Origin: Amoebophrya sp. A120
Lineage: Eukaryota > Protista > Dinoflagellata
Direction of reading: 5' to 3'
NCBI GenBank assembly: GCA_905178155.1
Contig: CAJINV010000004.1
Location: 9,648,625-9,712,624 of the forward strand
Length of the DNA stretch: 64,000 bases
Positions 1-62,769 of the stretch are shown piece by piece. Position numbers and translations under genes: made by a program. The notes under the pieces were generated by a model. That model had not been told where the DNA came from. It ran no database searches and saw only the letters and a list, made by a program, of their open reading frames with translations. Within the stretch, counting starts at the first letter, position 1. Each line of letters starts with the position of its first letter.

Positions 1-756
1 GTGAATGCTCTGTAATATGTAGTGAGGTCACCGAACGGTTCTAACCGGGGAGTTTTTTTGACATATACCCTGAAAAACGACCGGCAGTTTTCAAGCGGCC
101 GGAAGCGTTCTTTGACATAAAAGATTTCCAATTATTAAGCGGCCGGGGCTTTGAAGTCAAACAAGCCCGGTCGAAAACTATCGATTCGCACTTGATAAAA
201 CGACGCAGGGGAGCCGGCAAAAGGGGCGCCCTTCTGCGGCGCCCACCGCCTTGGTTTCTGGCGGTTTGGGCCGCCCAAAAAGGGGCGCGCAAAAAACTCG
301 CCCAAAGTCAGAACAGCGAAACAGCATGGCACGGCCGCGATTTTGGAGCATTTTGGGCGGCCGCGAAAGCGGCCGCCTTTTCGCCGGTTTCAGAGCCTGG
401 GAAGCTTTGCAAAAAGCGCCGGAGGGAAATATAGAAACGCGAAAAAGAAAAAGCGCCCCGGACGCGCAAAGCCAATCCGCATGCTATGGGCCCGATTTTC
501 CTTCGCTTTTTGGGCGCCCCCCGTGGCGCCCGGATCGGCTCCATAGCATGGGGGCTAGCTTTCGGAAAGGAATTTCGGAGATTTGCCAAAGGCTGCGACG
601 TTTATCGAGCGGCCGCCATACCGTGCGGCCTAACGTTACTCACGGCGGCATGGCGAGCCCAAAAAAAGCAAGGCCGCGGCCAAGGCGATGGCCGGCAAGA
701 AAACGCCCACAACCTCACCACCTCCGCCCCGGCGGCTATATTTGGCACACAGGCAC

Positions 757-38506: not shown

Positions 38507-41500
38507 ATGGACCTCCGCACGAATTCGCTCCTCCAGGACAAGTACAAGTCCGGCTCCAAGGAGCAGCAGCGCCTCTTCGGCGAGCAGCGCCGCACGGATT
38601 TTCTGGAGAATGCCGCCGCGGACAAGCGGAGTCGCATCGTATCAAGTGTAAAAGTGTCTGGGTCTGGAAAAGTGTACTTGTCATGCTAAATCTGAACCAT
38701 ACAAAAATCTGTGTTGCATGATTACCAATAAAGCTGTTCACTTTTGAGAAGGCCGAGAGGCAGTTTCTCATGCGGAAAAGGCATGGTAAAGATCTCACAA
38801 AATCTGTGATGCTATGGCATGCATCACAGACCTCACACGTCATGCAAAACTTGCATCACAAATCTGGCAGCTTCCATATATCGATTCTCATAGTATAGCA
38901 GGTCTCTGGGGTTCTGTGTGATTCAGTCACGGATTTCCTGTCTGCTTCTATTACAGTTGTGAACGCAAAGTATGGTTGAAAAATATATAAGTGCCCGGGG
39001 ATGAAGAAATGCTCGCGATGTTTTCGCGGTTCTGACCCTATGCCGCTCCAGCGCCTGTGGAGGCTTGTTTCCCCAGTGATAATGGACAATGGCAATGTCG
39101 GTGCGGTTGTTTTAGCATCACAAATCTGGCATTCTTCCAGACCCAGACATTTTTGCAATCCATACATCGAACAGATGCGCAGAATGGCGTTCGAGCGGGA
39201 TGTATCCTGTGCAAAAGTATAGTACTCGTAGTAATCGCAGTCATGCATTACAAATCTTCAGCCCAAGGTAAAACAGCATTTACAAATTCCATTTGTCATG
39301 CTGAGCTAATTTGTCATGCGATTGATATATCATCGAGACCCACGGAGCTTTACCCGCTAGACCAGGATTCTCCCATGCGAGCACCTTCTTCGTTCCTCCA
39401 GGCTTTTCTCGGCGTCCTTGGTCGGACGCTCCTGTTCTTGGTTGAAGTTGGACCCCGTGTGGCGGTAGCAGCTTCTCCTTTGCCCTGCCTTAGTAGCTCG
39501 AGCCTCGTTGCACTTCGTAAACTCTGCTCTTCGTAAAGTGAAGTCGTCTGGTGTTTTGTTGTCTTACCTTAGTACGGTAACCCCTTCCCCGCCTGTGTAA
39601 AAAACATTAACTTCCCATGTCCCCTTGCTTTTCTCGACTAAACAGTTATACTGTTATTTTTCTTCTAATGCTTACTTCCGCTGCTTTTTATTTATCAGTT
39701 TTAGTAGGGCATGATGCCAAAAGGGACGGACTGCCCTTAGAACTCCCATGTCATGCGATTGATACTAGTACGATACTTTTGCAGTTCATAGGATGCTGAC
39801 CAGCAAAGAGGGGGCTCATCTGCGAGGCAAGAAGTAGATCTGGAAGACGACGAGGACGACGACGATGAGGAATTCAGTACGATATCCGATATAATTGCGA
39901 CGTCGCAAGATCATGATCAGCAGTTGTTGTATGACAATCAAGATCTTTCTTCACCAAATGGTCGTATGCCGTCGTCCTCTCAGGAGCCTCTTCGAACAAA
40001 GCACAGGCACAACTACGACGAGGATGAGGACGATTTCGATTTCGACATGCATGAAAATTACGGTGCAACTACATCAAGACACAACTATCGCAACAGAAAC
40101 AACGGCACTTACAACAACGCCCGATCATCAAGCAGCAGAAATCCCAAATCCCTAGCCGCCACGGCGAAAAACAAGGCGAAGAAGCGATTTCGCGAGTTCA
40201 GTCAGGCGTTCATGCAGCCCGACTGGCTTCTCCCCGCCCCCGAGGTGATACCCGCGGATTTACTCGGGAACAGCAGTGGCACAACTGGATCGTCCTCGAA
40301 GAACGCCTCCCCCGGGGGCTGGTTCTGCTGCGTCCGCCCGGAGGGCGACCGAGTGATGATCTTCAGCGACGGGGGGCACACGCAAATTCGGCGCAGAAAC
40401 GGTACGGTGTTGCAGCAGTGGTTCCGCGACACCCGGTTTCCGAAAGGGCAGACGATTTTAGACGGCATTCTGGACTTGACCGCGGCGAATTTGGGTGGCG
40501 GTGACGCTGTTCTGAACAAAGATGGATCTACTTCCTCTAGTGCACCAATCGCAACTAGCAGCGGCATCATTTACGTTGTGGACGTGCTAGTGTGGGCCGA
40601 CGTCACTTTCTACGATGCGGAATTTGAGTTCCGGCACTTCTGGCTGCGATCCCGGCTCGAGGAACAGGATTGGGAGACCGAGATGCCAGTAGTGCCGATA
40701 TTATTGAACAACGGAGCTCTCGCTTCTGGCGGGTACCAGCAAGGAAATTTTGGTGGTGGAAATCAGCTCAAGAACTACCAGCAGTCGAGAAACAAACGGC
40801 GAAACAACAGGCGGCAGCAAAGAAAAAAGGACCAGCAGCAGCAGTTTCATCCAGGTGGAACAACCGCGCAAGATGGCAGCAACGATTCGTGGTGCGGTCC
40901 CAGTCCTCTAAACACGGGTGTTGTAGCTGCTGGTGGAGGCATGGAGGTCGACGAGCAAGCTGGTGCTAGACCTGCCGCAACAGCAGCAAACGGATCCTAT
41001 GCGAATGGACATTTGCCGGGTAATGGGAATGGAATGACCACCATGATAGGCCCTTGTGCGAAGCCGGCTGACGACCCGACTGTTGCAGGAAGTGGTACAT
41101 CAAATGGGGCAACTTCCATGATGGCCAACACCACCTCCTCCGCGGAATCGAAGCGCGCTAAGTATTTCCAAGCCCTGGCCACCGGCGCAATACATAACAG
41201 GCAGAAAGACGTGAAAAACCTCCAAATGACCGTTGACATGACACATCAAGCACAAGCTGCCCGTGGTCCAGATGAGCGATGTCATTCTAGCGTTACTATG
41301 AATGACGAAAACGACCTCTCCCTCTCCACAACCGCCACAAATCCACCTCGAGGCACGAACCCGCTGTACCCACTTGCCACCTTCAGCCTGCGTTTGATCC
41401 ACCAGCAGCAACTCTTTTCCCTCGACGACCTTCAAGCCCTCTACCGTTCCGCGCCTCCCTACGTGCACGACGGACTGCAGTTTTCGCACTCCCTCGGCCG

Positions 41501-43229: not shown

Positions 43230-45699
43230 ATGCCTCTCTATTCGAAGAATGGTAAGCGCATGGGCGCGGCCAGAACGGCGAAATTTTACCCCGACGGAGT
43301 AACGCCGAAGACCCAGTGCCCGCTCTTGAGCGAGGCGCGCCTCTCTCCCTGCCACCCCATGAACGATTCGCCCAACATTGACTACTTCGAGGGACGGCCC
43401 AAGCAGCCGGAGCCGCAGATTCTCGTGGCTGATGACCTGGGTTTGCTGAAGACCATCAGCACCACGGAGATCAAGAAAAAGGAGATTCAGCAGGTGTTTG
43501 GCGAAACGCGCAAGGGGAACAAAAATCAGGGAATTTCGGTTCTCGAGTGGCTGCCGGGGCACAAAGGGGTGGTGGTTGGGAGGACAAGTGGCGTGGTGGA
43601 GGTCTTCAAGTACCTCCCACCGGTGGTCGTCGCGAAAAAGAAATCGTACCGGCAGGTAGTGAAAAGTAGTATTGATGGTAGATCTTCTGTGGCATCCTCG
43701 AAGACGAAGCAAGGAGCGCCATCTTCATCGAGTAAAAACGCGTCGAGTTCTACTTCAAAGAGACCTGCAAAAGCCGATGTAGTGGAGATGGCCAGTGACG
43801 ATGAGGACGACAGTGAGGACGAAGAAGGCGAAACAACTCTGAAGAATGACAAGTTCTCAGAGGACGAGGAGCAGAGTGACGAAAAAAAACCGGCGAAAAA
43901 CAGCGAAGATAGCACGAATAAACCGAAAGAAGAGGAGCCGCAGGGGAAATTCGTCACAACGCCTGTCTTCAGTTTCGACTTAAAGCTCGCGCTGCACCCA
44001 AAGGACCCGACGAAGAATGAGAAACTGATCTTCGCAACTGGGTGCTGTTTCGAGAAGAAAGAGCAGATGAGCAAGCAGGAAGGAGCTACCACTAGCACAA
44101 CAGTACAGCTACGAGAAGAAGAACAAGACCATGCTGAACCGACGAAGCTTCTCGTTTTGTCCTCTCTGGGTAACGTGTGGATGCTGGACCTCGACATGGG
44201 TACTCTTCTGGCCGCCGCGGTGGAGGAAGATCAAGATGGTGACGACGCTACTACGAGCAAGAAGAAATACAATTACAAAAAAGCCGAATCCCCCTCCTCG
44301 AAGAAATTGTCCACCGGCGCGTCCGGTGCAACACCAGCATCAGAAGAACTACTGCACTTGAAACCCACCTTCACCTTACCCGGGACCTTTATTCAGCCGC
44401 TGGACAAGAAGTGGGCGACCTCGATCAAGCCGCGGCCGTGCGTGAAGGCCGCGTCCTTCCGGGAAGACGTAGAGCAGTTGGCGTACTGCGGGGTAGATAA
44501 CGATGTCCGGGTGTTCGACGTGCGGGAGCGGAAATTGGTGTGGAAGGCGAAAAACCTGCCGAACGATAAATTGGATCTCCAGGTCCCAATCCGCTACTCG
44601 AGGATACACTGGGCGACTGAGGTATAAAATCAGGAATGCTTTCGCTTTTTGTACAGAAAAAAAAAAAGAATTATGCACGATGCATGACAATGCAGGAGCA
44701 GGAAGATCAAGATGACCAATAGTACCATTTGCAATCCTCGAGCACGTCAAGAACGTTGTATTTGCAGATTCCCAGCAACACTGATAGCTTGTGACTTCAC
44801 AAAAAGAAAAAATCCTATATGCCCAGGCCCTCGACTGCGACACCGCGTTGGTGTGCTGCACGATGGACGGCAAAATCCGGGTTTTCGACATGAAAGCGAA
44901 GCAACTGCGCGCCCTGTTTGACCTCCCCGTCGTGTACAAGCGGGAACGATCCATCGGGCACGCGGGCGCCGCGGGGAAGGAGGAGAGACCGATTACCGCG
45001 TCGGTGTTGACCGACAACGGAATTCTGGCTGTGGGCGACACGGTCGGGAATCTCGATATTTTTGACTTGACCAAAACGAAACCGTATTTGACGGGAACGC
45101 CGGACTCCTTGCTTTTTCAGAACAAAATGGTCAAGGACATCCCCAAAATCGCCTCCATCGCCCATCACGAGTACGTCTGGAAGGGGCAGATCATCAAGTA
45201 CCTCGGTGCGTGTGCCCCCGAGGGATCCGCGATTCGATCGCTGTGCTTCATCCCGCAGACAAAGCAACTCGCGAGCGTCGGGCTGGGCCGGTTCGCGACC
45301 GTCCACAAGGCTTTGGAGTCGGATAAACGACGGGAACAGGATAAAAAGACGTACATGAAACAAAAACTTACCGCAGTCGTGGCGTTACCCCCGGTGGATC
45401 TGAGCAAGGTGAAAGTGGAAGGGGAAGGAGAAGCGGAGACGCAGAAAACGGATAATTCGAAAGCAAGAACTACACCCGCGTCGTCTTCAAAAAACACGGC
45501 GGCAACTACCACAGCCGATGCAGATGAACCTGGTTCAGACGGCGCGGAGGAGGAAGAGGAAGAAGGCCTGTTGAGCGATGACGATATTGTGTCTGAACTC
45601 AGCTACGGCAGCTACGTACAGGAGTTTGACGACGATGACGAAAGTTCAGAGGAGGTTGCCCCTCCGCCGAAGAAGAGGAGAAATAGGGGGAGAAAGTGA
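43230..45699 (+). CDS. NSA1: WD40 ribosome-biogenesis protein WDR74/Nsa1-like. Exons 43230-44621 and 44827-45699, one canonical GT-AG intron
   Basis: ILVADDLGLLK; DNDVRVFDV..VWKAKNLPNDKLDLQVPI; GDTVGNLDIFDL; GSAIRSL..LASVGLGRF; KTYMKQKLT. Donor GAG|GTATAA at 44622, acceptor CCAG| at 44826, in frame. Confidence 0.8.
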
Positions 45700-46954: not shown

Positions 46955-48232
46955 GTGCAGTAAGGGAATGGCGCGCGGCGAGGACGACTTCCTACACCTT
47001 CTCTCATCAATCGGGATTTTTCTTTTTTCGGAGAACGCACATACTTGCATTTGCTTGGTGACCTTCGGATACGCATTTTTATCCACAACTCTGCAGCTTT
47101 CTCCATTAAGCACGTCTCGGAACAAGAAGTACTCTTTTGCTTTTCTTTGAATGTTAGTTTTCGTAACGACAACAGGAACAGCCATGTCGACTTCTCAAGA
47201 TCGTGCGGTGTCTTCACAGTCAGAGGGACGCAGTGCCTCACGATTTTGGGATTAAAAGTCAAAAATTCATGTTTAATTTTTTTTCTTTTTATTTTTTGCA
47301 CATATTTGGTTTCGGAGTCGTGCCCTTTTTCTTCCTAAGTAGTCTGTTATCTTTTCCCCTTTAGATACTTCCTTTATATATATGTTTTCCACAGTCGTTG
47401 TACATCGTGGTTGTGCTTCCAGGTTCCTTCCACGTGTAGTAAGTTCCCATCCCGTTTCATATGGTATCGTTTTTGTAGTTTATTGTTATTGCTCCTAATG
47501 CTATAAGTACAAGTAGCTAATCCCTAACCCCCCCCCAGCACATCAACGCCCACGATCAAAGGAGTAGGTACCAGAATGCCCATGAATATTTGCAAAAACA
47601 GCAGTAGCTGCTCCCCGGTCTTTGCCCAGGAATAGAAATTCCATTGCATATCCTGCTCCCGATGAAATGCATCATAGTCGTCTGTTCCTGTAGTTGCACC
47701 CCATAGAAGCACGTCCCCGGCGGCATAGCCTGTCGCGTCACAGGAAACACGACATCCTCGACCCCCACATGACCCTTTTCCCCCGAAGCAACTTTCATCC
47801 CCCTCGAATTCCGTTCCACCTGGCCGGTACGTCGTGTGCATGGTAGTGTTCTTTCACTTCCGTGTCATTATCGTGTTTAGCCAAGCACGGCCGTGTTCCC
47901 TTGTCTGCCGATAGTTCGGAGGAGGTCGCTTCTCCGCTGGAGAAGAAAAAAAATAAGGGGAGAAAGTAAAGTTGCATGTGTAGAAGCATCTGTCTATGCT
48001 CGCCGAGGTTCATCATGCAAGAAAATCCACGCGCAACTGCAAAATCTTCGTAACGTCCTCACATCATGACGTGTTGAATTTATTTCTGCTCGCTCTGGAT
48101 CCTGTATGTAAGTATGATGTATTTCTGCGCGCTTGCTTTTTATTACTAACACCGTATAAGAAAACAAGCACAAGTGCCGTCGAAAGCGAAACTGCAACAC
48201 CGTACAGGCTGAGGCTAGGTCACATACGCATT

Positions 48233-48484
48233 CCCACTTGCAAATATGTGTGGGTCTGGAAACTTGTGATGCTAAAATGTGCATGATGGAAACACTCCCG
48301 AATGCAGTCCGGCATGACAACTTCCCAAAACGCTTTCTCATAGGCAATCCGCATAAGAAACTGCGTTTTTGCATGACAAAAGAGGCTGCGACTTTTGTTG
48401 GTTATGCAATACAGATTTTCTAGGTATGGAAAGCTAGCATTACAAGTTCCAACCTTCCAGACCCAGACACTTTTACAATCCATA
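48233..48484. mobile_element. Family-A introner with damaged left end, at the breakpoint of the partial Nsa1 duplicate
   Basis: Left CCACTTGCAAATATGTGTGGGTCTGGAA (no TAT, no matching DR); right CTTCCAGACCCAGACACTTTTACAATCCATA followed by Nsa1 exon CTGCG. Confidence 0.75.
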
Positions 48485-48977
48485 CTGCGGGGTCGATAAC
48501 GATGTCCGGGTCTTCGACGTACGGGAGCGGAAATTGGTGTGGAAAGCGAAAAACCTGCCGAATGACAAATTGGATCTCCAGGTCCCAATCCGCTACTCGA
48601 GGATACACTGGGCGACTGAGGTATAAAATCAGGAATGCTTTTGCTTTTTGTAGTAGATAGTTTAAAGAATTATGCACGATGCATGACAATGCAGGAAGAT
48701 GACCAATCTGTTGTAGTACCATTTGCAATGCTCGAGCACGTTAAGAACGTTGTTATTTATTTCGAATTTCCAGCAAAAGATAAAGAACTCATACTCGACT
48801 TCTCAAGAAATCCTGTATCCCCAGGCCCTCGACTGCGACACCGCGTTGGTGTGCTGCACCATGGACGGCAAAATCCGGATTTTCGACATGAAAGCGAAGC
48901 AACCGCGGGCCCTGTTTGACCTCCCCGTCGTGTACAAGCGCGAACGATCCATCGGGCACGCGGGCGCCGCGGGGAAG

Positions 48978-49242
48978 TATCAACTGTAAAAATGTCTGGG
49001 TCTGGAAGATTCTGACACTTGTCACGCACGTTTTGCATGAGCCATAATGTCTGTGATGCATACCCTAGCAATACAGATTTCTTGAGGGCTTCTTGATGCC
49101 TATCCCGCATGACAAATGCCTCCTCAGCGTAGGAAAAATTGCATTCCCTACTTTGGTACTCATGCAATACAGATTTTTTTGGAATCCAAATGCAGCATCA
49201 AAAGTTGCATTCTTCCAAACCCAGACATTTTTACATTTGATA
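48978..49242. mobile_element. Introner family A (reverse orientation), DR GGAAG
   Basis: TATCAACTGTAAAAATGTCTGGGTCTGGAAG / CTTCCAAACCCAGACATTTTTACATTTGATA; the empty site in intact Nsa1 has one GGAAG. Confidence 0.95.
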
Positions 49243-49305
49243 GGAAGGAAGAGAGACCCATTACCGCGTCGGTGTTGACCGACAACGGTATTCTGGCTGT
49301 TGGCG

Positions 49306-49454
49306 TATGAATTGCAAAAGTATCGTACTCGTATAAATGCATTACAAATTTCCTCAGCATGAGAAATAAAATTTGTAATGCGGATTTGCCTCAAGAAGAA
49401 GATTTGTAATGCAAGACTTGCATTTATACGAATACGATACTTTTGCAATGCATA
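49306..49454. mobile_element. Introner family B, DR TGGCG
   Basis: TATGAATTGCAAAAGTATCGTACTCGTATAAATGC / GCATTTATACGAATACGATACTTTTGCAATGCATA; empty site present in the intact copy. Confidence 0.95.
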
Positions 49455-49588
49455 TGGCGACACGGTCGGGAACCTCGATATTTTCGACTTGACCAAAACG
49501 AAACCCTATTTGACGGGAACGCCGGACTCCTTGCTTTTTCAGAACAAGATGGTCAAGGACATCCCGAAAATCGCCTCCATCGCCCACC

Positions 49589-49858
49589 TATGGAAACCAA
49601 AAATGTCTGGGTCTGGAAGATTGCAACTTGTAATGCTGTCTTTGGATTCCAAAAAAATCTGTATTGCATGACCAGCGACAGGACTCCAGTTTGTGTTACG
49701 CGGAGAGGGCATTTCTCATGCGGAATAGCCATTAGGAAGCCCTCTACAAAAACAAATCTGTGTTGCTAGATCATGCATTAGAGCAGGCATCAATCATCAT
49801 ACAAAATATGCATGACAAGTCTGCATCCTTCCAGACCCAGACGTTTTTGCATTTGATA
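49589..49858. mobile_element. Introner family A, DR CCACC/CCATC
   Basis: TATGGAAACCAAAAATGTCTGGGTCTGGAAG / CTTCCAGACCCAGACGTTTTTGCATTTGATA; empty site GCCCATCAC. Confidence 0.95.
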
Positions 49859-50091
49859 CCATCACGAGTACGTTTGGAAGGGGCAAATCATCAAGTACCT
49901 CGGTGCGTGTGCCCCCGAGGGCTCCGCGATTCGATCGCTGTGCTTTATCCCGCAGACAAAACAACTCGCGAGCGTCGGGCTGGGCCGGTTCGCGACCGTC
50001 CACAAGGCTTTGGAGTCGGATAAACGACGGGAACAGGATAAAAAGACGTACATGAAACAAAAACTAACCGCAGTCGTGGCGTTACCTCCGG

Positions 50092-50303
50092 TATGGAGAG
50101 AAAAAAGTTTGTCACAGTCACTAACTTGCTCTTGCAGGCTTTGCATTACAAATTTTCTCAGCATCACAAACTTTCCATGTATTGCAGAAACACTAGGGAA
50201 ATCCCTAATGAAGTTTGGCTGTGATGCATTTTTACGCATGACAAACAATTTTGCGTTGCAAGAATGCGCATGAGTGATCGTGACGAACTTTTTTTCTTTG
50301 ATA
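50092..50303. mobile_element. Introner singleton family, DR TCCGG
   Basis: TATGGAGAGAAAAAAGTTTGTCAC / GTGACGAACTTTTTTTCTTTGATA; spliced product reads LPPVDL as in the intact copy. Confidence 0.93.
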
Positions 50304-50364
50304 TCCGGTGGATCTGAGCAAGGTGAAAGTGGAGGGGGAGGAAGCGGAGACGCAGAAAACGGAT

Positions 50365-50643
50365 TATCCTGAGTAAAAATGTCCCCACACCAGAGTCAAG
50401 ATGGGGATTTTGCAACACAAACCTAGAACTTTTGGGGGTCACGCATCACAAGTTGCAGTCCGTAGTGTAGTGCATGTTCGCAAGGCCAGCTGCATCAGAA
50501 ATCCATCTGCTCATCCTGTTTACAGCATTACAAATTCCAAAACACAACTAAAAATGACTCTCCTGGCGATGCGCATTACAAATGTTCCTGTCATTGCAAA
50601 TCTGCATGACAACTCTGGTGCGGGTACGTTTTTACTCAGGATA
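50365..50643. mobile_element. Introner family C (reverse orientation), DR CGGAT/CGGAC
   Basis: TATCCTGAGTAAAAATGTCCCCACACCAGAGT / ACTCTGGTGCGGGTACGTTTTTACTCAGGATA. Confidence 0.95.
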
Positions 50644-51867
50644 CGGACAATTCGAAAGCAAGAAGTACACCCGCGTCATCTTCAAAAAACACGACGGCAA
50701 CTACTGTAGCCGATGCAGATGAACTTGCTTCAGACGCGGAGGAGGAAGAGGAGGAGGAAGGGATGTTGAGCGATGACGATATTGTGTCTGAACTCAGCTA
50801 CGGCAGCTACGTGCAGGAGTTTGACGACGATGACGAAAGCTCGGAGGAGGTCGCACCTCCGCCAAAGAAGAAGAGAAATAAAGGGAGAAAGTGAATTAGT
50901 ATTGCATCAAGATGACAGCTCGACGGTTGCCAAGCCCCTGAGCATGCAGTAGCAGTTGTAGAACATTGAAGATAAGATCTTTATCTTTCTTGAAAGCTTC
51001 TCTTTCTGCACGTGACATTCTTTGTGCACATTGACGTTTTTCTGTTTGTTCTCTTTCGCATTTTGTCGTCATCTAATGTTGAAACTGAAAATATCATGAT
51101 TATCATTTTATTTTTATTATGCTGCATATTCACTACCCTGCCTCTGTAAGTGCATCGCAGGCCGTGTTCCTGATCGTGCTCGTGCAAGTATAGATTATGG
51201 TCTTCGTCGTTCGCTTTTAGCCCAACTGGCAAACTCGTTCACTGGAAGTGGTCAATGACGATGCTCTTCTTGCTGCATGATGAAAGGCAGTGTGCATAGG
51301 ATAGCTTTGCACCCGCGAACAACGTGATCCGTTTCTATTATTGACGCCCATGGGCAATAATATCGTGCGTGCCATCATCTTCGTCCAAGTTGACAGTACA
51401 ACTGCTTCGTTCTCATCTTTGTCGTGGTTCTTACTGTATTAAGGAAGAAGACGGCGACAATGATTGCGGCTCCGGCTCGATCCGGAATATATAGATTTAA
51501 TAAGCACGTAGTTGGCCAGCATGGATTAGCAAAATTAATAAAAAAATCTGACAACAGCAAGTTGAAGAGCAGCGCATATGCTGAGCTTGAGTTTTTAAGA
51601 TATAACTTCGTCCTCGTTCTTTATTGCGTCACAGTTCCCGCTATTTCAACGACTCCGAGTCCCGCAGATTCTAACTCCTCGCTCAGTCCTCAAATACAGT
51701 CTGTCAGGTGAAACTATACGCAAAACCAGAAGTAGTTGTAACACTAGTACGGTCTGCTCGTTTTCAGGCCGCGACCTTCACTCGACAAATTGGTGCCGCA
51801 AGGTAAAGAATAAAAAAAGCCGTAGTTCTACTAATTGCTCTGAGTCTAGCGCTCCCAATAGCAGAAA

Positions 51868-53614
51868 ATGGTCAAGAAAACTACCAGCGCTGCTCTTGCA
51901 ACCACCCTCGGGGGGGGGGGGGGTGCTCGCCGCTGCGACGTCGCGCACGCATTCGTGGACCGGAAGTGAGTATGGCCCGCCCAGGTGTCACATTGTCAGG
52001 CGTTACCGTCAGAGTCAGAGTTTATGACGTTGCAATCACCGGAGCACAGAAAGAGATGTTGAGAAGCATTATTATTACGCTTAACGGCTTTTTTTTTTGC
52101 AAAACTAGCACTACACCAATCCCGTACTAAGCGGATTACCAAATACGTCGAGCAACCCAACGGCGTCCCGGCTGTATAAAAGAAATTCAGTGTTTTGCAA
52201 AGGTTGAGGCTCTTTGAAGTATTGGAATAGGCGAGAGTGTAACGCCTGAGCGGGCCATAATGAAACGTCGGGCTTTCTGGAGGTGAATGGCAAGGCTGAC
52301 GCTGCGAGCGTCTGTCAATATATGTCCCCCCTGATGGAGGGTGGGATATTTGCAACGGATGTAGGCCAACCCGGTAAGTAGTACCTCTACTAGAATTTAG
52401 TACGCGTGCTCAAGAATTAGCTCATGAATAGCTCCTCCAGCTGCACACCTAAAGTTCTGGAACGCCTGGATGGAGGGGCGCAGGTTCATCGATAGCCGCC
52501 TCTACTAGTGCAATAAGCGTGGTCAACTTTTAGCTCATGAAAGCTCCAGCTGTACTCTTGACGTTCTGGAACGCCACCACCCTCCGCCCGCAGCCGAGCC
52601 GAGCCGTCAAGCTCTCCACTTTTAAAGTTGCGACACTCCTAAAGTTCCGAGCACTCTTAAAGCCCCGCCCGCAGCCGAGCACTCCTAAATTTCCGACACG
52701 CCAAAGTGCCCCATGTTATGCTTATGCTATGCTAAATGTAAAATTCTGATCATCTGACTCAGGGCGGTACATAACTAAGTAGTCAAAGGTTTGTTTCTGT
52801 TTGTACTCACCTTATATTCCAGGCGCCCCCGAAACGGCAAAAAACAGCAAAAAACTGATCGGTTTATTGCATTCAGAAACCCCAGCGAGGGAGTGTGGGT
52901 GGCGCGCCAGAGCGGTGCGCCCGCATTGCGTCGGGCTTGCGGGCGAAGCCGCTGCGGGTAGTCGGAGTCGAGAATCTCGACCCGGGCCCAAAGTTGTTGA
53001 GAATCTCGACTCCGATGGCCCCCAAACCGCATAAGGAATTTAACTTCTTTGCCCACGGGCTGGAATCTGAGAGAAGAGTCGCCGCTTTTGCGAACCCGGG
53101 AAGAGATTGCCGCTTCAAGAAAGTTGAAGACTTGTCGTGCGAAGTAGGGGCCGGCAGGTGAAGGCCAATCGATCCCGAGCAACAGCGGCACTCCTAGGCT
53201 AAGACGGAGGCCGCTGACCCTTTTTTCCTCGCAGCCCGCGGGCCGTTTTTTTGTTTCATTATGTCCTCCCATACTAGCCATACATTTACATTATAGGAGG
53301 TTTGCTACTTCATATTACATACAGGGCCGATGCGCGAAACGGGAAACATGTGGCCGTGGCCCGTGGGTGGAGGTCTTCAGAAGACAACAACCTGCATCAA
53401 GTTCAAGAAGCAGAAGGACGAAAAGAAGTGCCCTTCAAACGAAGATAACAAGTTGACTACATATTCTTCTTTTGGTCATACATCTGCCCTTTTCAAAGCC
53501 GAAGAGTCGTCGAGCAGTGCCAATTACGCGGCCATCACTCTGATGCTTCAAGAGGATGTCGATTTCTTGGCCAGATGTCTGATGTGCCCGGATCTGTGCA
53601 AGGATAGCGCTTGA
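51868..53614 (+). CDS. Paralog of the small secreted Cys-rich protein. Exons 51868-51970, 52265-52373, 53325-53614; +1 frameshift in a G14 run
   Basis: MVKKTTSAAL..THSWTGSETSGFL..C..WPW..TCIKFK..C..ARCLMCPDLC aligns with 46574-46954. Canonical intron G|GTAAGT (52374) to ATACAG| (53324) is in frame. Confidence 0.7.
51971..52259. mobile_element. Introner singleton family, imperfect DR GTGAG/ATGAA
   Basis: TATGGCCCGCCCAGGTGTCACA / TGTAACGCCTGAGCGGGCCATA; the empty site GGAAGTGAAACG is in the paralog at about 46670. Confidence 0.88.
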
Positions 53615-55811
53615 GTCTCGTACTTTCGTTCTTTTTTTTTTCGGTTTATTCTGGTTGACGTTGATCAACAACAAGTACGTTTATATTCGAAAAAGTACCA
53701 AAACCTTTATCACAAAAGTAGAAGTACTTCAAAAAAGTTATACGTAGTACAAAACACAAAACCAAAAGTTAAAGTAACAATATCAGCCAGCTTTGAAGAT
53801 TTTCAGTACTGTAGCCAAATTTCAGGCAACGTCGCGAATATGTTGTCTTCGCCCACAGTAGCGCAGAATAACTCTGTGTGGCTTTCCGTTCTCATGATTA
53901 TGGTCTTTCACTTTGCTTGAATATGAATTTGTTTTTGTAGGAGCGTCTAGGTTTTTTTTCATCGTCACATCATAAAGTGCAAAGTCAAAGTTTCCCCACC
54001 GATCGAAAAGCAGATTTGAAAAGCTATAAACCAACGGAAAGTAGACACCTTCCAAACAGATGTTGGAGGGAGCACGCTGCGTGTTTCGACTCTGTTTTAA
54101 CTCAGTCTTGCTTGACTCGAAGATTTAAGAAAACCCCCTTCCCGATTGCATGCATGTCTACAACATGATAGGCGGACGCGAAGCCTTGACCTTCTTCGGC
54201 ATAAAATCCAAAAAAAAAAAATATAAAAGCAATGCTGTAGAAGGTAGAGTTTCAGTATTCGTTTAAAGAACGCATTGGCGTATGCGTAGCAAACTCTTAT
54301 AATTTTTCATCTTTTCATCCCCTTGCCTTTAGCAATACTTACTTTAATGTTTTCCACAGTCGTTGTACATCGTGGTTGTGCTTCCAGGTTCCTTCCACGT
54401 GTATTAAGCCCCATCCCGTTTCATAGGATATTGTTTTTACTTATTTATTGTTATTGCTCCTAATGCTATAAGTACAAGTAGCTAATCCCTAACCCCCCAG
54501 CACCGCAACGCCAACGATCGAAGGAGTACCAGAATGCCCATCAATATTTGGAAAAAGAACAGTACCTGCCCCCCGGCCTTTGGCCAGGAAGAGGAATTCC
54601 ATTGCATATCCTGCTCCCGATGAAATCTGTAGCGTAGTCATCCGCTCCTGTGGTTGCACCCCATAGAAGCACGCCCCCGGCGGCATAGCCTGTCGCGTCA
54701 CAGGAAACACGACATCCTCGACCCCCACATGACCCTTTTCCCCCGATGCAACTTTCATCCCCTTCGAATTCCGTTCCACCTGGCCGGTACGTCGTGTACA
54801 TGGTAGTGTTCTTTCACTTCCGTGTCATTATCGTGTTTAGCCAAGCACGGCCGTGTTCCCTTGTCTGCCGATAGTTCGGAGGAGGTCGCTTCTCCGCTGG
54901 AGAAGAAAAAAAATAAGGGGAGAAAGTAAAGTTGCATGTGTACTAGAAGCATCTGTCTATGCTCGCCGAGGTTCATCATGCAAGAAAATCCACGTGTAAA
55001 CTCTTCGTAACGTCCTCACATCCTGACGTGTTGAATTCATTTTTGCGCGCTCTGGATCCTGTATGTAAGTATGATGTATTTCTGCGCGCTTTCTTTTTAC
55101 TACACCGTATAAGAAAACAAACACAAGTGGTGCCGTCCGTCGAAAGCGAAACTGCAACACCGGACAAGCTGAGGCTACATCCCGTACGCATTCTTCTTCG
55201 TCCCGTCGGACTGAGTTTTGGTCCTGTAAAAATATCTTCAAGAAACCGCTTCGTGAATCGTCCCTCCTCAAAGAAATCGTTCAACTTCGCACTTTTGTAG
55301 TACGTCCAGTTTACCTCGTACACCTTTTCCGTGTGTGATGCGTTTGATGAAACTCGTTCGGTACTACAGAACGACAGCAGTGGTCGGTCAACTTGTATTC
55401 ATCTCGTTTACTGCAGCGGACCACGACGAATTGCTTCTTCAATTATATTCCTCCTGTCACTTTCCCTGTGAATTTTCAGGCTCAGGCACCATCTCGGTCG
55501 CATTTATGCTCACCTCGTACTGGCGATAATTAAAGTATTTCTTCAGCACGTCGGTTGTCCTTGTCTGTTTCGATTTCCTCGGTGTGCTTTTAGTACCATT
55601 ATCCTACGACCTCTACCTCCGCTCGGTTTTGTTTTGGTTGGTCCCGAACCAACTTTGCTTCCTCACAAGTAGCTTCGGTTTGAAATCGAAGCTGAACATC
55701 TTCAATCTGTAGTACGTGTCAACTACCATCAAATTACTAGACGTTACAACATATACGACCACTATCTACATGTTTGCTTTTTACCAAGTTGGTAAGTACC
55801 ACCCGCCCAAA

Positions 55812-58800
55812 ATGGTTTTCTCCACGATCCGCACAGTGACCAATTTTACCCAATTTGTCCTGAAAGACCTCCCCGCGTCAGTCATGGTGGGCGCGGCGGC
55901 AACAGCACTGTACTTCGCGGAGGTACAGGCGGCGCTGAAAGTTGCGGGCGTGATGATCGGCGCGAACCCGCCGCTCGCGGCGTTATGCGCCTTCTTCGCG
56001 GTTGTGTTTTCCACCATTATCCTGTGCAAAAGTATCGTACTCGTAGTAATCGCAGTCATGCATTACAAATCTCCATGCCAAGGTAACACAGCATGACAAA
56101 TTTCATTTGTCATGCTGACCGAATTTGTAATGCGATTTCTACTAGTACGATACTTTTGCAATGCATAACCATGGCGGTGCTGCAGTACAAGGGCGATTTC
56201 GACTTTTTCTACTTCGCCAGGTATCAACCGTAAAAATGTCTGGGTCTGGAAAAATGCAACTTGTCATGCTCAATCTGAAGCATGCAAAAATCTGTGTTGC
56301 ATGATTACCAAAAGTCGTCCAGTTTTGATCAAGTCGGGAGGGAGTTTCTCATGCAGGATAGGCATGAGAGAGATCGCACAGAATCTGTCGTGCTAGGTCC
56401 TGCATTGCAGACCTCATGGGTCATGGAAAAGCTGCATGACAAATCTGACAATCTTCCAGACCCAGACACTTTTGCAATCCATACCAGGACGCGCGTCCGG
56501 AAGGACTACTACGACAGCATCGCGGAACTGGACTTTGACGGCTTTTACCAAACCATGCAATTGGACTACGAGAATTTGGTGAGATGGGTGTCAGAAAACG
56601 GAAACTACGTTTACACCGTATCCTATGTAGAAACGTCCCCACCCCATAGTTGTCATGCGGGTTTGCAATGACAGGAACATTTGTAATGCGAACCTACATG
56701 AGAGGAATTTCCCATCGTGTTTTGAAATTTGTAATGCCGTAAACAGGATAAGAAGGTGGGTTTGTGATGCGACTGTCCTTGCTAAGCTGCACTACACTAC
56801 AAAGACAAACCTGTCATGCATGGCTCCGAAAACTCCTGGATTTGTGTTGCCGAGTTCCCAACTTGACTATGGGGTGGGGACGTTTTTACATAGGATACAC
56901 TGTCGTGTCCGCAAACGTTTTGGATTTGTATTACTACCTTCTCGTCGATTTCGGGTTTATCCTGAGTAAAAACGTACCCACACCACAGTTGTAATGCAAA
57001 TCTGCATGCTGAAAATGTTTCTCATGCGGAGCCCCATGAGAAGCATTTTCCAATCGTGTTTTGCAATTTGTCATGCTCCAATCAGCATGGTCAGATAGAT
57101 CTGTGATGCTGCTGAGCTAGCTCAAACAGCACTACAATACGAATCCAAATTTGTCATGCAAAACAGCTAAAACTTGTGGATTTGTCTAGCCGATTCCCCA
57201 TCTTGACTCTGGTGTGGGTACGTTTTTACTCAGGATAGGGTTGCCGGTTTTGTTAGGCGCCATGGCGCTCGGCTCCGTCCTCGGCGTGGTGGGTCTGTAT
57301 GTACTCTTTGTCGGGCTGCGAAGGATGGTTTTTGGAAGAAATAAGGTTAATGTTCAACAGCACCCAAATTATGCACAGTTGATCGACGGCGCAATTTCTA
57401 GCAGTTCTGTTGGTGTTACTCTTCCGCAGATGACACAGATGAACAGATCCGGAAAGATTGCGAAGCCGAAGGAATCCGTGTCCATCCGCTCCCCGAATCT
57501 GTTAGCTCCTCCGAGTAGAAGATCTTCGAAAGAGAGTGTGACAAACATAAGTCCGCGTCCGGTTGACAGCAAAATGAATTCCGCACGACCGGTTTCCCCG
57601 ACCGCAACCTCGAGCCGCGCGTCTCCGCCAGGCAGTCCCCGCCGGCGTGTGTCCCGCACTGAGGCGGAGTACGAGCAGGACCAGCTCCTTACGCCCTACG
57701 ATGCGCAAGTGCTTTCGCCAACAGGGAATCAACCGAAGGACCGGTTTAAAAACCGGCTTTCCTCCTCGTCGCGGTCGCCGTCCCCCGTGGCTCGCGGCGG
57801 ATCCAAATCCTCCGAACGGAGTTCCAAGGGGAAGGGCGGGCTGGGCCGGAGCAGATCCCCTGTACCGGGGGCGGTGGATCCCTCGTCAAAATCGGAGAAT
57901 GATGAGTTGAATTCGAGCAGAAATCTATTGGAACAGTTGCAGCGAAAATCCGTGACCAAGACGGATTTGGAGTTCAAGGAACAGTCCACCGCACTGCAGC
58001 AAATTGGGGAGTACTTGGACCGACTGACGATGAGTGCCTTCAACTCCGGCCCCTTTGGAGGGATATCAAATGCAAAAATGTCTGGGTCTGGAAGATCGCA
58101 ACTTGTCATGCTAAATCTGATTCATGCAAAAACTCTGTGTTGCACGATTACTACCAACAGCCGTCCTTTTTTACCAAGTTGAGAGAAAATTTTTCATGCA
58201 GAATAGGTATGATAGATTTTTCACAGAATTTGTCATGCTTGGCACTGCATTCCAGACCTCATGGGTTATGTAACACCTGCATGACAAACCTTCCATTCAT
58301 CTAGACCCAGACATATTTGCAATCCATAAGGGAACAAGAAGCACAAGCAGCTGGTGAACCCGTACTACGTGCACCCGGCTTCGTATGGATGTGTCAGAGT
58401 TGAAATCGACAAAGTTGAAATGATTTGTCATGCATAAAATGCGACACAGAGACTGACTCTATTGCTGAAGGCGCAAGGGAGGCAGATTCTAGTGCTGGTA
58501 AGGGTCAAGCATTGGGCTGCTGACTAGCATGACAGGGAGCAGCCATCTTGCCCTAAACAGCATGACAGACTTGCTTCAGAGGCCAGGAAAACTTGTCATG
58601 CGCCGATTGATAACTGTGGGTCCAACTGGTATAGATTTCATGCATCGCAAATTATTTCAACTTTGTTAATTTCAATCCTGACAGTTCCATACTTCGGATT
58701 TGCCCGGGCAGAAATCGAAAAAGTACGACTTTGTGCAGCCGAAGTCGATTCAAATGGCGGAGCAGATCCACCAAGAGGCGGCTGAGAAGAAAGCGATGGA

Positions 58801-61646
58801 ACTAGAATTATACCAGCAGGAGCAACAAGATCTCTTGATGAACACAAACAACAGAAGTACTTCTCTCCGAGGGTCCTCTTCGTCCTCTGCTTCGAAAATG
58901 GACAAAAAACGTCGACCCTTCTACCTCCGTGCGGGCTCCTCGCGGAACAAGCACGCCTTGTCCCACTCCGCCTTCGAATTGCCCGGCGTGTTGCAGAAAA
59001 AACGGAAACTCGGGACCGTGAGGAAGCCGCCCCCGCTTGATTTCGGCGAGCTGGATTACGAAAAGGCGAAACAAGCCGGCTTGCACCACTTGATCCCGGC
59101 GGAGAAACTTGATGTTTATCCCGCTGGGGTCGTTTATCAAATGCAAATATGTCTGGGTCTGGAAGGTTGCAACTTGTGATGCTGTTCTTGGATTCTAAAA
59201 AAAATCTGTATTGCATGACCAGCAAGAGGAGCCCAGTTTGTGCTACGCGGGCGGGAGGCCATTTCTCATGCGGAATATTGCATCAGAAAGCCCTCTGAAA
59301 ATCTGTGAAGATGCTAGGCCACGCATTACAGGAATCATGGGTCATGCAAAATGTGCATGACAACCCTAGCATCTCTCCAGACCCAGACATATTTGCAATT
59401 GATATCGTCACCCCCGGAGCGATTTCCGCGAACGAGGAAGCGTCCGCGGCGTCCACACACGGAGGAAGGGATATCAACTGTAAAAATGTCTGGGTCTGGA
59501 AGATTCTAAACTTGTGATGCTGTCTCTGGATTCTGAAAAAAATTGTAATGCATGACCAGCAAGAGGACTCCAGTTTGTGCTACGCGGAGAGGTCATTTCT
59601 CATGCTGTAGAGGCATCACAAAGCGCTCTAAAAATATGTGATGCTACGGCATGCATCACAGACATCATGGGTCATGGAAAATATGCATGACAAATCTAGA
59701 AGTCTTCCAGACCCAGACATTTTTACATTTGATAAGGGATAACGAAGACGCAACTAACTCCCTCGAGATGAACACCAACAGCCTGGTGGACCTCGGTGAG
59801 ACCACACTGACCGCTTCGAAGCAGGAGATCGGGCGGTCGATGGGCAGGCGTATGAAATGCAAAAGCATCGTACTCGTATAAATCGCATGACAAATCTCCT
59901 CAGCATGAGAAATATAATTTGTAATGCGGATTCAACTTGAGAAGGAAATTTGTAATGCATGAATGCGATTAATAGTACGACTACGATACTTTTGCACAGG
60001 ATAAGGCGGACCAGAATCCTGTTCGGGAATCTGATCAACTCGCACAACATATCCCCCAGAAAAAGACCGACAGGTCATATTTGTAATGCAAAAATAAATA
60101 GACAAAAAAATCTGTATTGCATGCCCTAAACAGGATGCTATGGCCTCGCCCATGACAGATTTTCCTGTGTATTTATTTTTGCATTACAAATATGACCTGT
60201 CGGTCTTTTTCTGTGGGATACAACAAGAAGCGGCTTGTCGCAGGAGCCTCGGCTCCGCGGGACAGTGCCGCCGGACGTGCAGCCCCGCAGCCGAGTTCTT
60301 ACATGGTGGCACAGAAACGGCGGGACCAAATGCGCGGCCGCGCGAGATCTCGGTCTCCCTTCTTTTCGACGAGGAATGAGGATGATTTGGAGAAAAATCA
60401 TTTTGGTTCATCTCAACATCTCCAGTTGTACAACGACGAGTTATCGGGTACCACGATGACAAACGCCGACTTGCACCAGCACAACTATCAGCGGTCCCAG
60501 TCCGCCGGTACGCAGCCCTTTCAGCAACAGGAGGAGGAGAAGATGCAAACGCAGCTGCTCGCGATGCACTTCGAGTCCAAGTCGAAGCAGCAAGACGAGC
60601 GGATCTTGCACGCGCAGCAGTACGCGAGACAACTGGAGCTCAAGATGAAGCAGATGCAGAAGCGCGCCGAGCTCGCGGAAGAGAAGTTCCACATGCTTCG
60701 CTACGCCCAGCAGGAGGCGGGGGCGCCCAGCAAACTGCGGCTCGCGGGGGAGACCTTCGAAACGCAAATCCAAGCGGCTATGGCGATGGACGCGGCGCAG
60801 GCGGATCCGCAGCAGATGGCCCGGGTCGTGCACGACCTGGAGCAACAGCACAACCGGATGCTATCAAATGCAAAAATGTCCGGGTCTGGAAGAGTGCATG
60901 TTTGTCATGCTTGTCGGGCATGACTCTTAAATCTGTAATGCACGCTACCCAAGAGCCCAATTTTGCTGTCATGCAGAAACGCAGTTTGTCATGCAGAATA
61001 GGCAACATCTAGAAGCTCAAAAGCTTTGTCATGCTGAGCCAGCACTTGTGGCGTCTTCATGATACGCCACCCAGCATCACAAGTTTCCAGACCCAGACAT
61101 ATTGGCAATGCATAGATGCTGGGAAAGTGCAAGGTGGAACTCGCGAACAAGGAGGCGAAAATATCCTGAGTAAAAATATCCCCACCCCAGAGTTGTCATG
61201 CAAATCTGCATGCCAAAAAAGTTTCTCATGCGAAGCCCCATGAGAAGCTTTTTCTAGTCGCGTTTTGGGATTTGTGATGCTAGAAATAGCATGAAGTGCT
61301 AGATCTGTGATGCTGCTGAACTAGCTAAACAGGATCACACAAGGAAGACAAATTTGTCATGCGAAGCAACCAAAGTTGGCTGATTTGTCTAGCAGGTTTC
61401 CCATATTGACTCTGGTAATATGGGGATGTTTTTACTCAGGATAGAAAATGGACAAGATCCGCGCGTTCGCAAAGGACCGAATCGAGAAGCTGCAGCTGAA
61501 AGTCAAAGAAATGGAGCAGCAAAACTCGAAGCTGGTCGACGTTCCGGCGGAAAAATTTGACCAACGGATCAAGTTCTTGACGGACCGGGGCGTGGAGCTG
61601 GAAAAGCAAAAAGCAAAATTGACGAAGAAGAACGCGGACCTGGAGG
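55812..61646 (+). CDS. 3'-partial hypothetical protein (N-terminal transmembrane segments, Ser-rich middle, C-terminal coiled coil) interrupted by 12 introners
   Basis: All 12 junctions restore one frame: FSTMAV, FARTRV, VYTVVS, DFGLPV, FGGNKK, PASDLP, GVVTPG, GRDNED, MGRRTR, SHNKKR, NRMLGK, EAKMDK. Confidence 0.8.
56018..56167. mobile_element. Introner family B, DR ACCAT
   Basis: TATCCTGTGCAAAAGTATCGTACTCGTAG / CTACTAGTACGATACTTTTGCAATGCATA. Confidence 0.93.
56222..56483. mobile_element. Introner family A, DR CCAGG
   Basis: TATCAACCGTAAAAATGTCTGGGTCTGGAA / CTTCCAGACCCAGACACTTTTGCAATCCATA. Confidence 0.93.
56619..56897. mobile_element. Introner family C, DR CACCG/CACTG
   Basis: TATCCTATGTAGAAACGTCCCCACCCCATAGT / ACTATGGGGTGGGGACGTTTTTACATAGGATA. 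Confidence 0.93.
56958..57237. mobile_element. Introner family C, DR GGGTT
   Basis: TATCCTGAGTAAAAACGTACCCACACCA / TGGTGTGGGTACGTTTTTACTCAGGATA. Confidence 0.95.
58064..58328. mobile_element. Introner family A, DR AGGGA
   Basis: TATCAAATGCAAAAATGTCTGGGTCTGGAAG / TCTAGACCCAGACATATTTGCAATCCATA. Confidence 0.93.
58384..58691. mobile_element. Introner singleton family, DR CTTCG
   Basis: Imperfect TIR of about 55 bp, TATGGATGTGTCAGAGTTGAAATCGACAAAGTTGAAAT / ATTTCAACTTTGTTAATTTCAATCCTGACAGTTCCATA. Confidence 0.92.
59135..59404. mobile_element. Introner family A, DR TCGTT/TCGTC
   Basis: TATCAAATGCAAATATGTCTGGGTCTGGAAG / TCCAGACCCAGACATATTTGCAATTGATA. Confidence 0.93.
59472..59734. mobile_element. 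Introner family A, DR AGGGA
   Basis: TATCAACTGTAAAAATGTCTGGGTCTGGAAG / CTTCCAGACCCAGACATTTTTACATTTGATA. Confidence 0.95.
59851..60003. mobile_element. Introner family B, DR AGGCG
   Basis: TATGAAATGCAAAAGCATCGTACTCGTA / TACGACTACGATACTTTTGCACAGGATA. Confidence 0.93.
60050..60220. mobile_element. Introner singleton family, almost fully palindromic (arms about 65-70 bp), DR CAACA
   Basis: TATCCCCCAGAAAAAGACCGACAGGTCATATTTGTAATGCAAAAATAAATA / TATTTATTTTTGCATTACAAATATGACCTGTCGGTCTTTTTCTGTGGGATA. Confidence 0.95.
60862..61114. mobile_element. Introner family A, DR GATGC
   Basis: TATCAAATGCAAAAATGTCCGGGTCTGGAAG / TTCCAGACCCAGACATATTGGCAATGCATA. Confidence 0.93.
61162..61443. mobile_element. Introner family C, DR GAAAA
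   Basis: TATCCTGAGTAAAAATATCCCCA / TGGGGATGTTTTTACTCAGGATA. Confidence 0.95.
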
Positions 61647-61794
61647 TATAACTCCTATTGCTGAGCAGGGGCAGTTAAAATTTTGCAACAGGGAGGAAAA
61701 TCGTCCACGCCGAAAATTTTTTTACAATTTTCAAACTTTCCAAATCTCTCGCGATTTGGGAAGTCGCCCAACGCCCAACGCCCAACGCCCAACG

Positions 61795-62600: not shown

Positions 62601-62769
62601 GGTCGCTCGGATCTGCGCGGTCGCGTGGCACTTCCTTACTGAAATCCCTAAGGAAAAAAAAACTTCAGCTGATCGCGCGTCCGAGGAGAGCAACGCGATC
62701 AGGCAGCCGAAGCCCGAAGGTGGCGATCGCATCCCTGCAAGTTGTACGCACGGGGATTGTCGCCTGTCC

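Follow-up and report, generated by a model that had tools for sequence, protein, structure and literature searches.

Introner elements in genes of Amoebophrya sp. A120 face either way and are missing from contigs of likely RNA

In a window of 64,000 nucleotides from Amoebophrya sp. A120 (GCA_905178155.1, contig CAJINV010000004.1, positions 9,648,625 to 9,712,624), elements of the same families lie in both orientations in genes and are absent from likely-RNA contigs; splicing likely recognises nothing but the mirror-image ends of the elements. The elements are members of the published introner elements of A120. An element finder returned 26 of them in the window and none in 60 base-shuffled loci, thus they are not due to chance. 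All 26 have an inverted repeat joining both ends (criterion 8-20 nt or more) and stop codons in all three + frames, and they lie in ORFs that become open, over 775-980 codons, only once the elements are taken out. A region at 45254-54893 has a 100 % identical inverted copy at 21745-31384, likely an assembly artefact, which was masked ahead of all counts and rejected as the source of the two-way effect.

Families A, B and C were each found in both orientations in + strand genes by comparison within the window, as an earlier note on this DNA had claimed for families A and C in sense genes. With 35 nt cut off each end for families A and C, the family A element 48978-49242 matched the reverse complement of 49589, 59135 and 59472 with 75 %, 74 % and 74 % identity (same orientation 56-58 %), and the family C element 50365-50643 that of 56619, 56958 and 61162 with 77 %, 70 % and 67 % (same orientation 56-58 %). 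These matches are family-level identity, short of exact reverse complements, and at that level the reported relation of 48978 to the three family A elements holds. For 50365, the earlier note had described a start with the arm that forms the right ends of 56958 and 61162: the arm is shared and reversed, but it lies 27 nt inside the element and not at its start. The motif CAGAGTCAAGATGGGG is located at 50391-50406, its reverse complement exactly at 57196-57211 and with 14/16 positions at 61399-61414. Family B, which the earlier note had missed, also faces both ways within a single long gene: the copy at 56018 is reverse and that at 59851 forward (73 % vs 60 %). Extra reverse copies in other long ORFs, known from sequence comparison only, are a family A introner at 2287..2545 (- strand) inside a ubiquitin-conjugating-enzyme-like region of a 775-codon ORF, and a family B introner with a nested insertion at 39203..39790 (- strand) in a snurportin-like gene.

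At 48485..50896 (+ strand) lies a copy of a WD40-like gene that is transcribed and truncated at its 5' end; five introners interrupt it in addition to one GT-AG intron (48621-48824). Its intact paralog of 754 aa (43230..45699, + strand) has empty sites with a single copy of the target-site duplication (TSD) at each of the five positions; the first exon of the paralog is 100 % identical to the A120 protein P0001, with the next match in A25 at 48 %. The public A120 gene model P0004 likewise leaves out the five elements of the truncated copy. Contigs of the four likely-RNA runs, X1-X4, lacked the elements at 6/6 sites in 48490-52560, including the reverse copies 48978 and 50365. The joints listed in this region were those at the six elements and at the sole GT-AG intron, with no further ones among them, and the bins 51074-51617 had zero depth across all four runs. 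This RNA evidence consists of assembled contigs from one study, with X1-X3 from one sample and the RNA status of the runs guessed.

Each removal comprised exactly one element and 5 nt. For the reverse family A introner 48978..49242 (- strand, TSD GGAAG/GGAAG) the joint 48972>49243 was present in X1 only (1/4 runs), in one contig of depth 6 that has alleles of the element-bearing copy on either side; X4 adds a 15-nt loose end that matches the upstream exon. The family B introner 49306..49454 (+ strand, TSD TGGCG) was removed at 49300>49455 in 3/4 runs, the family A introner 49589..49858 (+ strand, TSD CCACC/CCATC) at 49587>49863 in 2/4 runs and 50092..50303 of another family, D (TSD TCCGG), at 50086>50304 in 2/4 runs. 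The reverse family C introner 50365..50643 (- strand, TSD CGGAT/CGGAC) showed the joint 50358>50643 in 3/4 runs, and a neighbouring TAT…ATA element unrelated to the families (51971..52259, TSD GTGAG/ATGAA) the joint 51966>52261, also in 3/4 runs. At 13/13 listed differences between the two gene copies the element-free contig matched the element-bearing copy; it therefore derives from that copy, and the intact paralog was rejected as its source at the three junctions tested. The last part of the contig has intact-copy alleles, probably from an assembly switch.

A second locus is the long gene at 55812..61646 (+ strand), which has 12 introners and one open frame once each element and one TSD are removed. 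The gene likely runs on past the window end; no Pfam family was found for the two exons tested. In X1 the gene is represented by a contig 5243 nt long, at depth 143 and with 0 differences among the four pieces listed, which falls short by the length of exactly ten elements, the reverse family B element 56018 among them. The length sums, 991, 583 and 877, were exact for these ten, which are all of the 12 but 60862 and 61162. Removal of the reverse copy 56018..56167 (- strand, TSD ACCAT) is thus read from the sum that it forms together with three neighbours (991 = 991) and not from its own joint. The sum 877 = 877 covers 59135, 59472, 60050 and 59851..60003, the + strand family B introner of the same gene. 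Other + strand introners of this gene are 56222..56483 of family A (TSD CCAGG) and two of family C, 56619..56897 (TSD CACCG/CACTG) and 56958..57237 (TSD GGGTT). The caution of the earlier note that both clear reverse copies lie in the truncated paralog largely falls. Nor are reverse copies restricted to silent or pseudogenic loci or left unspliced: the truncated copy is transcribed, its comparison with the intact one across 240 codons gave a pN/pS of 0.024, and its reading as a decayed pseudogene was rejected. The data support a removal independent of element orientation.

Outside the window, the 127 coding copies of families A, B and C split 64:63 by orientation, with the host strand assigned by a codon model, not by RNA, and 85 of 283 elements left out for want of a confident strand call. 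Element pairs within the same ORF had the same orientation in ten cases and opposite orientations in nine. Orientation is near 1:1, with little bias; in the strictest ORF subset forward copies are more numerous, with 29:17 when the window is left aside (p = 0.10) and 43:22 when it is included (p = 0.013). The following counts on ends, registers and folds (n = 211) use an earlier set of strand calls, which agrees with the later set in 193/193 shared calls.

The elements begin with the consensus TAT(C/G)N4GYAAAA and carry its complement at the other end; both ends share one profile when read in transcript orientation. TAT itself was a requirement of the finder and is not an independent result; A at positions 11-13 was present in 87-96 % of 211 elements and fits TAT followed by 7 variable nt and at least three A. 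A search of viral contigs for the exact end of family A gave 0 matches. The 5-nt TSD was perfect in 230/283 elements, with 4/5 matches in 41 and 3/5 in 12, at least 3/5 being required by the finder. Family C has a one-directional internal motif, yet its reversed copy is also removed. Over six exact registers, GT-AG or GC-AG ends were possible in 16/211 elements, 195/211 had none. The elements 50365, 56018 and 49589 were removed although none of their permitted registers ends in AG, which for the reverse copies 50365 and 56018 applies to every exact register; the first and last dinucleotide need not be fixed for removal. G at +1 was not selected for (67/211 vs 62 at the mirror position) and AG at the end was not clearly so (22 vs 14), which is hard to explain for a normal spliceosome.

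Mismatched TSDs serve as markers of the cut. The RNA join of 49589 retains position 4 of the left copy, that of 50365 has position 5 from the right copy, and that of 51971 has position 1 from the left and position 5 from the right. Most simply, the cuts lie 1 nt ahead of TAT and 4 nt beyond ATA, a 4+1 register assembled from three elements, of which 49589 alone also fits 5+0. Mismatches at TSD positions 2-4 are absent from all reverse copies, whose register may hence be mirrored. Codon preference at mismatched TSDs of outside loci (30 cases) did not fix the register. For 56222 the inferred register equals the exact GT…AG register, in which the TSD supplies the G and the AG.

Folding predicts that the terminal inverted repeats (TIRs) pair whichever way the element faces. 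Six copies were folded, three for each orientation; in 6/6 of them the prediction pairs TIR positions 10-20 with p ~0.9-1.0 nearly throughout, and in some (59851, 56018, 49589) it leaves the outermost pairs open. G·U pairs were not favoured over A·C mismatches in TIRs (154 vs 166), nor was the sense strand more stable than the antisense on folding (60/111). Since G·U pairs are not in excess, a symmetric sequence motif accounts for the data as well as a stem, and an RNA stem is a possible removal signal by prediction. The symmetric signal proposed in the earlier note, either an RNA stem or a DNA-level excision, is supported as regards orientation-independent removal; the stem branch is a prediction with a negative G·U test, and the DNA branch is disfavoured by the elements kept in the DNA-like run X5.

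In the proposed mechanism, a transposase or integrase would insert the element irrespective of strand and leave the 5-nt duplication. In either facing, the transcript would open the element with TAT(C/G)N4GYAAAA and close it with the complement. The RNA would be cut 1 nt 5' of TAT and 4 nt 3' of ATA, and the mRNA would hold TSD positions 1-4 of the left copy and position 5 of the right copy. Polarity would be supplied by the transcript direction, and the enzyme may recognise the ends by their sequence motif, by their pairing into a stem, or by the two together. Its most likely identity, favoured somewhat over even chances, is a relaxed, probably U1-less spliceosome. U2, U4, U5, U6 and 83/89 spliceosomal proteins have been reported for A120, U1 was not detected, and T is second in all nine predominant non-canonical pairs of A120 in Table S4 (PMC7789003). 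The coincidence of cut register and GT…AG at 56222 was counted in favour of the spliceosome and speaks against a nuclease that cuts both sides at the base of the TIR stem with a ligase joining the exons, as proposed for euglenids. Such a second, orientation-blind system, cutting tens of thousands of inserts at a fixed distance from the TAT/ATA stem and religating without a spliceosome, is rather unlikely, at about one chance in four. The free end dinucleotides, the predicted pairing of positions 10-20 and the undetected U1 would suit it, whereas the absent selection for wobble pairs and the outermost pairs predicted open do not. If true, any TIR insertion would be silent in either direction.

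Three further explanations are each very improbable. A precise excision from DNA by a transposase-like enzyme in expressing cells, like that of ciliate internal eliminated sequences, would agree with TIRs and TSDs as DNA-transposon features and with an intact paralog cleanly without all five elements; the excision might also be specific to a life stage, and 15 of 896 joints were listed. However, a contig of X5 (51910-52557, depth 40) spans 51971 whole, and X5 contigs run into element ends at depth 41-48, the single-copy depth; DNA excision is disfavoured because this run keeps the elements. In the likely-RNA runs, X1 and X3 hold element-containing contigs of 51971 at a depth of ~4 beside the joined form (57-75 there, 57-88 over the three runs with the joint), with empty intergenic bins, a pattern expected of pre-mRNA. 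Two runs of raw reads, X8 and X9, were uninformative: they yielded 4 and 130 reads, which fell almost entirely on fragments of elements. Joins could likewise arise as template switches of reverse transcriptase over a hairpin between direct repeats ("falsitrons"), with the reverse copies left unspliced. A stable hairpin flanked by short direct repeats is the anatomy described in the accessible part of PMC8240250, and the joins are known here from assembled contigs. Against such artefacts stand the stops in 26/26 elements of long ORFs, the constraint on the host copy and the dominance of the joined form; as the join of 49589 has position 4 from the left copy, the sequence shared between the two sides of a switch would be 1 nt at most. 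Ordinary two-way introners, each orientation drawing GT, GC or GA and AG from TIR and TSD, would explain 48978 and 39203 (readable as GA…AG), 56222 (GT…AG) and 59851 (GC…AG); AG stood somewhat more often at TSD positions 3-4 (19/171 elements) than at the other three (13, 9 and 10). This explanation fails for the three elements removed without an AG-ending register, and the 195/211 without GT-AG or GC-AG speak against it.

The A120 introners of Farhat et al. (2021, PMC7789003) come from the same organism and have the TAT + 7 nt + AAA inverted repeat, the 5-bp direct repeat, non-GT-AG ends and a hairpin model in common with the window elements, which also form repeated families, are absent from likely-RNA contigs and have a direct repeat of 3-5 nt at the borders. 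As far as searched, the text and supplement text of that paper do not discuss copy orientation relative to the host gene and call intron borders uncertain. No report of two-way removal in Amoebophrya was found in the literature searched; the elements are known, the property is apparently unreported. To the A120 introners are added the near 1:1 orientation, the removal of reverse copies and the TSD mismatches as cut markers. The statement that polar spliceosomal introns cannot come from both orientations was too strong, since the accessible part of Roy et al. (bioRxiv 10.1101/2020.10.14.339549) describes two-way introner-like classes 1, 2, 3, 6, 7, 8 and 10 in Polarella glacialis and cites two-way introners of Aureococcus anophagefferens, likewise transposon-derived with TSDs. 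According to that part, these elements use GA/GT/GC donors and AG-type acceptors from element or TSD, and Polarella classes 6, 8 and 10 prefer one orientation, whereas the A120 ends are unfixed and orientation is little biased. Such donor and acceptor pairs, as well as the GT/GC…AG ends of U2 introns, do not describe the A120 elements, with 50365, 56018 and 49589 lacking AG. In the accessible part of PMC11282704, euglenid nonconventional introns similarly have TIR-like paired ends, TSD-like junction repeats and non-canonical borders, and circular excised products were demonstrated; their ends are CAG/CTG at +4..6 and -8..-6 with purine/pyrimidine borders, in contrast to TAT(C/G)N4GYAAAA. The same part describes transposon-derived introns of Fritillaria borealis, also with TIR, TSD and non-GT-AG ends, that an adapted spliceosome removes; they prefer AG-AC and AG-AT, whereas A120 is constant only at the second base T.

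The removal of ~30,000 non-canonical introners is a question left open by the describing paper (PMC7789003). Since both orientations are removed and occur at ~1:1, it is improbable that removal needs a polar signal in the element interior, and the removal signal would be confined to the inverted ends of 25-35 nt. With mismatched TSDs, RNA-seq data that already exist can be used to locate the cut. A transposon spliced out in any facing and at any site would be free of the need for a nearby usable splice site, and this escape would help to explain the density in the long gene, 12 elements per ~2.8 kb of coding sequence.

After masking of a duplicate, 26 elements were found in the window, each with a TAT start, an ATA end and a 5-nt target duplication (TSD) at its flanks; the same finder returned no element on 60 shuffled loci. 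This is the introner anatomy given in the accessible text of Farhat et al. 2021 (PMC7789003). The masked segment 21745-31384 (9640 bp) is an exact inverted copy, 100% identical to 45254-54893, with N runs on both sides. The contig depth of a DNA-like run (X5) within 45254-54893 was mostly 40-43, compared with 41-48 outside, without doubling; the inverted copy is thus likely an assembly artefact and was left out of the element counts. A 754-aa A120 protein matched the window exon 43230-44621 with 100% identity, the next match, from A25, with 48%. On the + strand, all 26 elements have stop codons in all three frames, and deleting each element along with a single TSD yields open frames of 775, 980, 325 and 980 codons.

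The elements, named here by their start, lie in both orientations, as the earlier note had observed. With ends trimmed, the reversed family A element 48978 matched 49589, 59135 and 59472 at 74-75% identity in reverse complement and at 56-58% in the same direction. For the reversed family C element 50365, identity to 56619, 56958 and 61162 was 67-77% in reverse complement, again versus 56-58%. Family B, overlooked in that note, has 56018 reversed relative to 59851, both within the long gene 55812-61646. Clear reverse examples are therefore not confined to the truncated paralog, as had been cautioned: besides 56018, further reverse copies (2287, 39203) are located in long ORFs that match Pfam families.

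Reverse copies are removed. The evidence comes from contigs of four runs of one study (X1-X4; X1-X3 are one sample), whose RNA status is a guess. They behaved like RNA: the GT-AG intron 48621-48824 was skipped and depth was zero at 51074-51617. Seven joints were listed for 48490-52560, those of the GT-AG intron and of all six elements, and every element joint drops the element plus 5 nt. The joint of reverse A 48978 occurred in one of the four runs, and X4 had a loose end that fits it; the joint of reverse C 50365 was present in three runs and that of forward A 49589 in two. The contig over 48978, 49306 and 49589 has the allele of the element-bearing copy at 13 of 13 listed differences, which rules out derivation of these three joins from the element-free paralog; its last part has intact-copy alleles. 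A 5243-nt X1 contig of the long gene (depth 143) was 991, 583 and 877 nt shorter than the DNA across three gaps. These deficits are exactly what removal of ten elements adds up to, among them reverse B 56018, whose removal is read from the length sum and not from a joint of its own. The truncated WD40-like copy (48485..50896) is transcribed and differs from the intact copy (43230..45699) over 240 codons by 26 synonymous and 2 non-synonymous changes (pN/pS 0.024); its public model P0004 likewise lacks the five elements. The possibility that reverse copies are unspliced or restricted to untranscribed or pseudogenic loci is contradicted by this transcribed, constrained copy and by the absence of reverse A, B and C elements from likely-RNA contigs.

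The two WD40-like copies belong to an apparent tandem duplication (44484-55193) with a family A element at about 48225-48484 as junction, its flanks unmatched. All five elements of the downstream copy are absent upstream, with purifying selection on both copies; either gain in one or clean loss in the other may account for the difference. At each of the two sites with mismatched TSDs, the intact copy agrees with the presumably intronic TSD copy.

In RNA, position 4 of the left TSD copy was retained at 49589, position 5 was that of the right copy at 50365, and at 51971, an unrelated TAT…ATA element, position 1 was left and position 5 right. Across these three elements, though not within one, we infer a single register, with the intron starting 1 nt before TAT and ending 4 nt after ATA; it may be mirrored in reverse copies. 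It equals the GT…AG register where the TSD happens to provide those bases (56222). In published Table S4, T is second in all nine predominant A120 non-canonical pairs (PMC7789003). GT-AG or GC-AG is possible in at least one exact register for 16 of 211 elements, and 50365, 56018 and 49589 are removed without an AG end; the end bases are free. Over the 211 elements, G at +1 (67) was similar to the mirror position (62), and terminal AG numbered 22 versus 14. Single TSD mismatches in the window and 150 outside loci (L001-L150) were synonymous in 18 of 30 cases versus an expected fraction of 0.38-0.45 if one copy changes freely (P 0.01-0.07); this excess could stem from a cut whose position slides or from conversion by empty alleles.

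Both ends carry the consensus TAT(C/G)N4GYAAAA, read inward, in either orientation. The internal motif of family C has a single direction and the element is still removed when reversed, so a needed polar signal in the interior is unlikely. Removal would proceed at the RNA level, directed by the element ends, which we regard as quite probable. A relaxed spliceosome would be, on balance, the more plausible agent of such removal; a nuclease-ligase system is a rather doubtful one. An RNA stem was predicted in six of six folded copies. G·U pairs were no more frequent than A·C mismatches (154 versus 166), and the sense strand proved the more stable one in no more than 60 of 111, hence a paired stem and a symmetric motif cannot be told apart here.

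The symmetric removal signal proposed earlier agrees with the orientation-blind removal and the symmetric ends; its RNA-stem version is predicted, without a G·U excess, and its DNA-excision version is disfavoured by X5, which retains elements. Excision from DNA is unlikely, given that an X5 contig spans 51971 at depth 40, that other element ends are entered at single-copy depth (among 15 of 896 joints listed), and that element-containing contigs of X1 and X3 had a depth of about 4 versus 57-75 for joined ones. Template switching could create joins as an artefact and is compatible with the element anatomy, judged by the accessible text of PMC8240250, but leaves unexplained that removal is needed to open the frames, and the join at 49589 does not fit.

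Orientation was also scored on metagenome loci: a scan with the family A end gave 151 stretches (150 used), on contigs sharing one accession prefix, from a strain that may differ from A120. Window and loci held 283 distinct elements; for 198 of them the host strand could be called with confidence by splicing in silico and scoring with a codon model. Among copies of families A, B and C outside the window, 64 were forward and 63 in the reverse direction (A 50:50, B 7:8, C 7:5), the strand coming from the codon model, not RNA. Stricter subsets gave 36:36, 29:17 (p=0.10) and 15:11. Since adding the window elements shifts the 29:17 subset to 43:22 (p=0.013), a mild forward bias may exist. Pairs of one family within a single ORF can be compared without a strand call; ten had the same and nine the opposite orientation.

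Introners and the hairpin idea are already published for A120 (PMC7789003, accessible text). As far as the available texts go, Polarella introns arise from either orientation with splice sites from element or TSD (bioRxiv 10.1101/2020.10.14.339549, which also cites either-orientation intron creation in Aureococcus); in contrast to these element- or TSD-derived sites, 50365, 56018 and 49589 leave without an AG end. In their accessible portions, PMC9860276 permits opposite-orientation matches in its methods, PMC12130899 required matches 5' to 5' and 3' to 3' and reports Amoebophrya elements with integrase-like homology, and PMC11282704 and PMC11453091 do not mention Amoebophrya element orientation; PMC13326754 does not mention Amoebophrya. 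Removal in both orientations was not described for Amoebophrya in the literature searched, although subscription papers, figures and bioRxiv supplements may contain such a statement. The elements are known; their orientation-blind, dinucleotide-free removal appears unreported for Amoebophrya and narrows the open question of how these introners leave RNA.

The motif TGTNATG(C/A) or its complement was present inside 197 of 198 strand-called elements of all families, at 12.1 per kb within window elements versus 0.4 per kb outside elements; the mobilising enzyme may bind there, at a protein-binding site common to the families. An extra reverse family A element (~680-929), its left end uncalled by the finder, lies at the 5' end of the 775-codon ORF. 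Positions 928-5017 form a single ORF with six introners, Pfam matches to erythromycin esterase, ubiquitin-conjugating enzyme and DUF179, and, by eye, a RING-like cysteine pattern. Nested insertions occur in two introners (38640-39164 and 39203-39790), and an apparent 16-nt duplication borders the insertion within 39203; the surrounding ORF opens if each introner is taken out whole. Downstream of the long ORF (61647-64000), a large repeat with 17-nt tandem repeats begins TATAACTCC and recurs in locus L021 from about 3397 in another context. The 5243-nt X1 contig continues for 2311 nt past 60856 versus 245 expected in the window; the long gene therefore likely extends beyond a multi-kb element.
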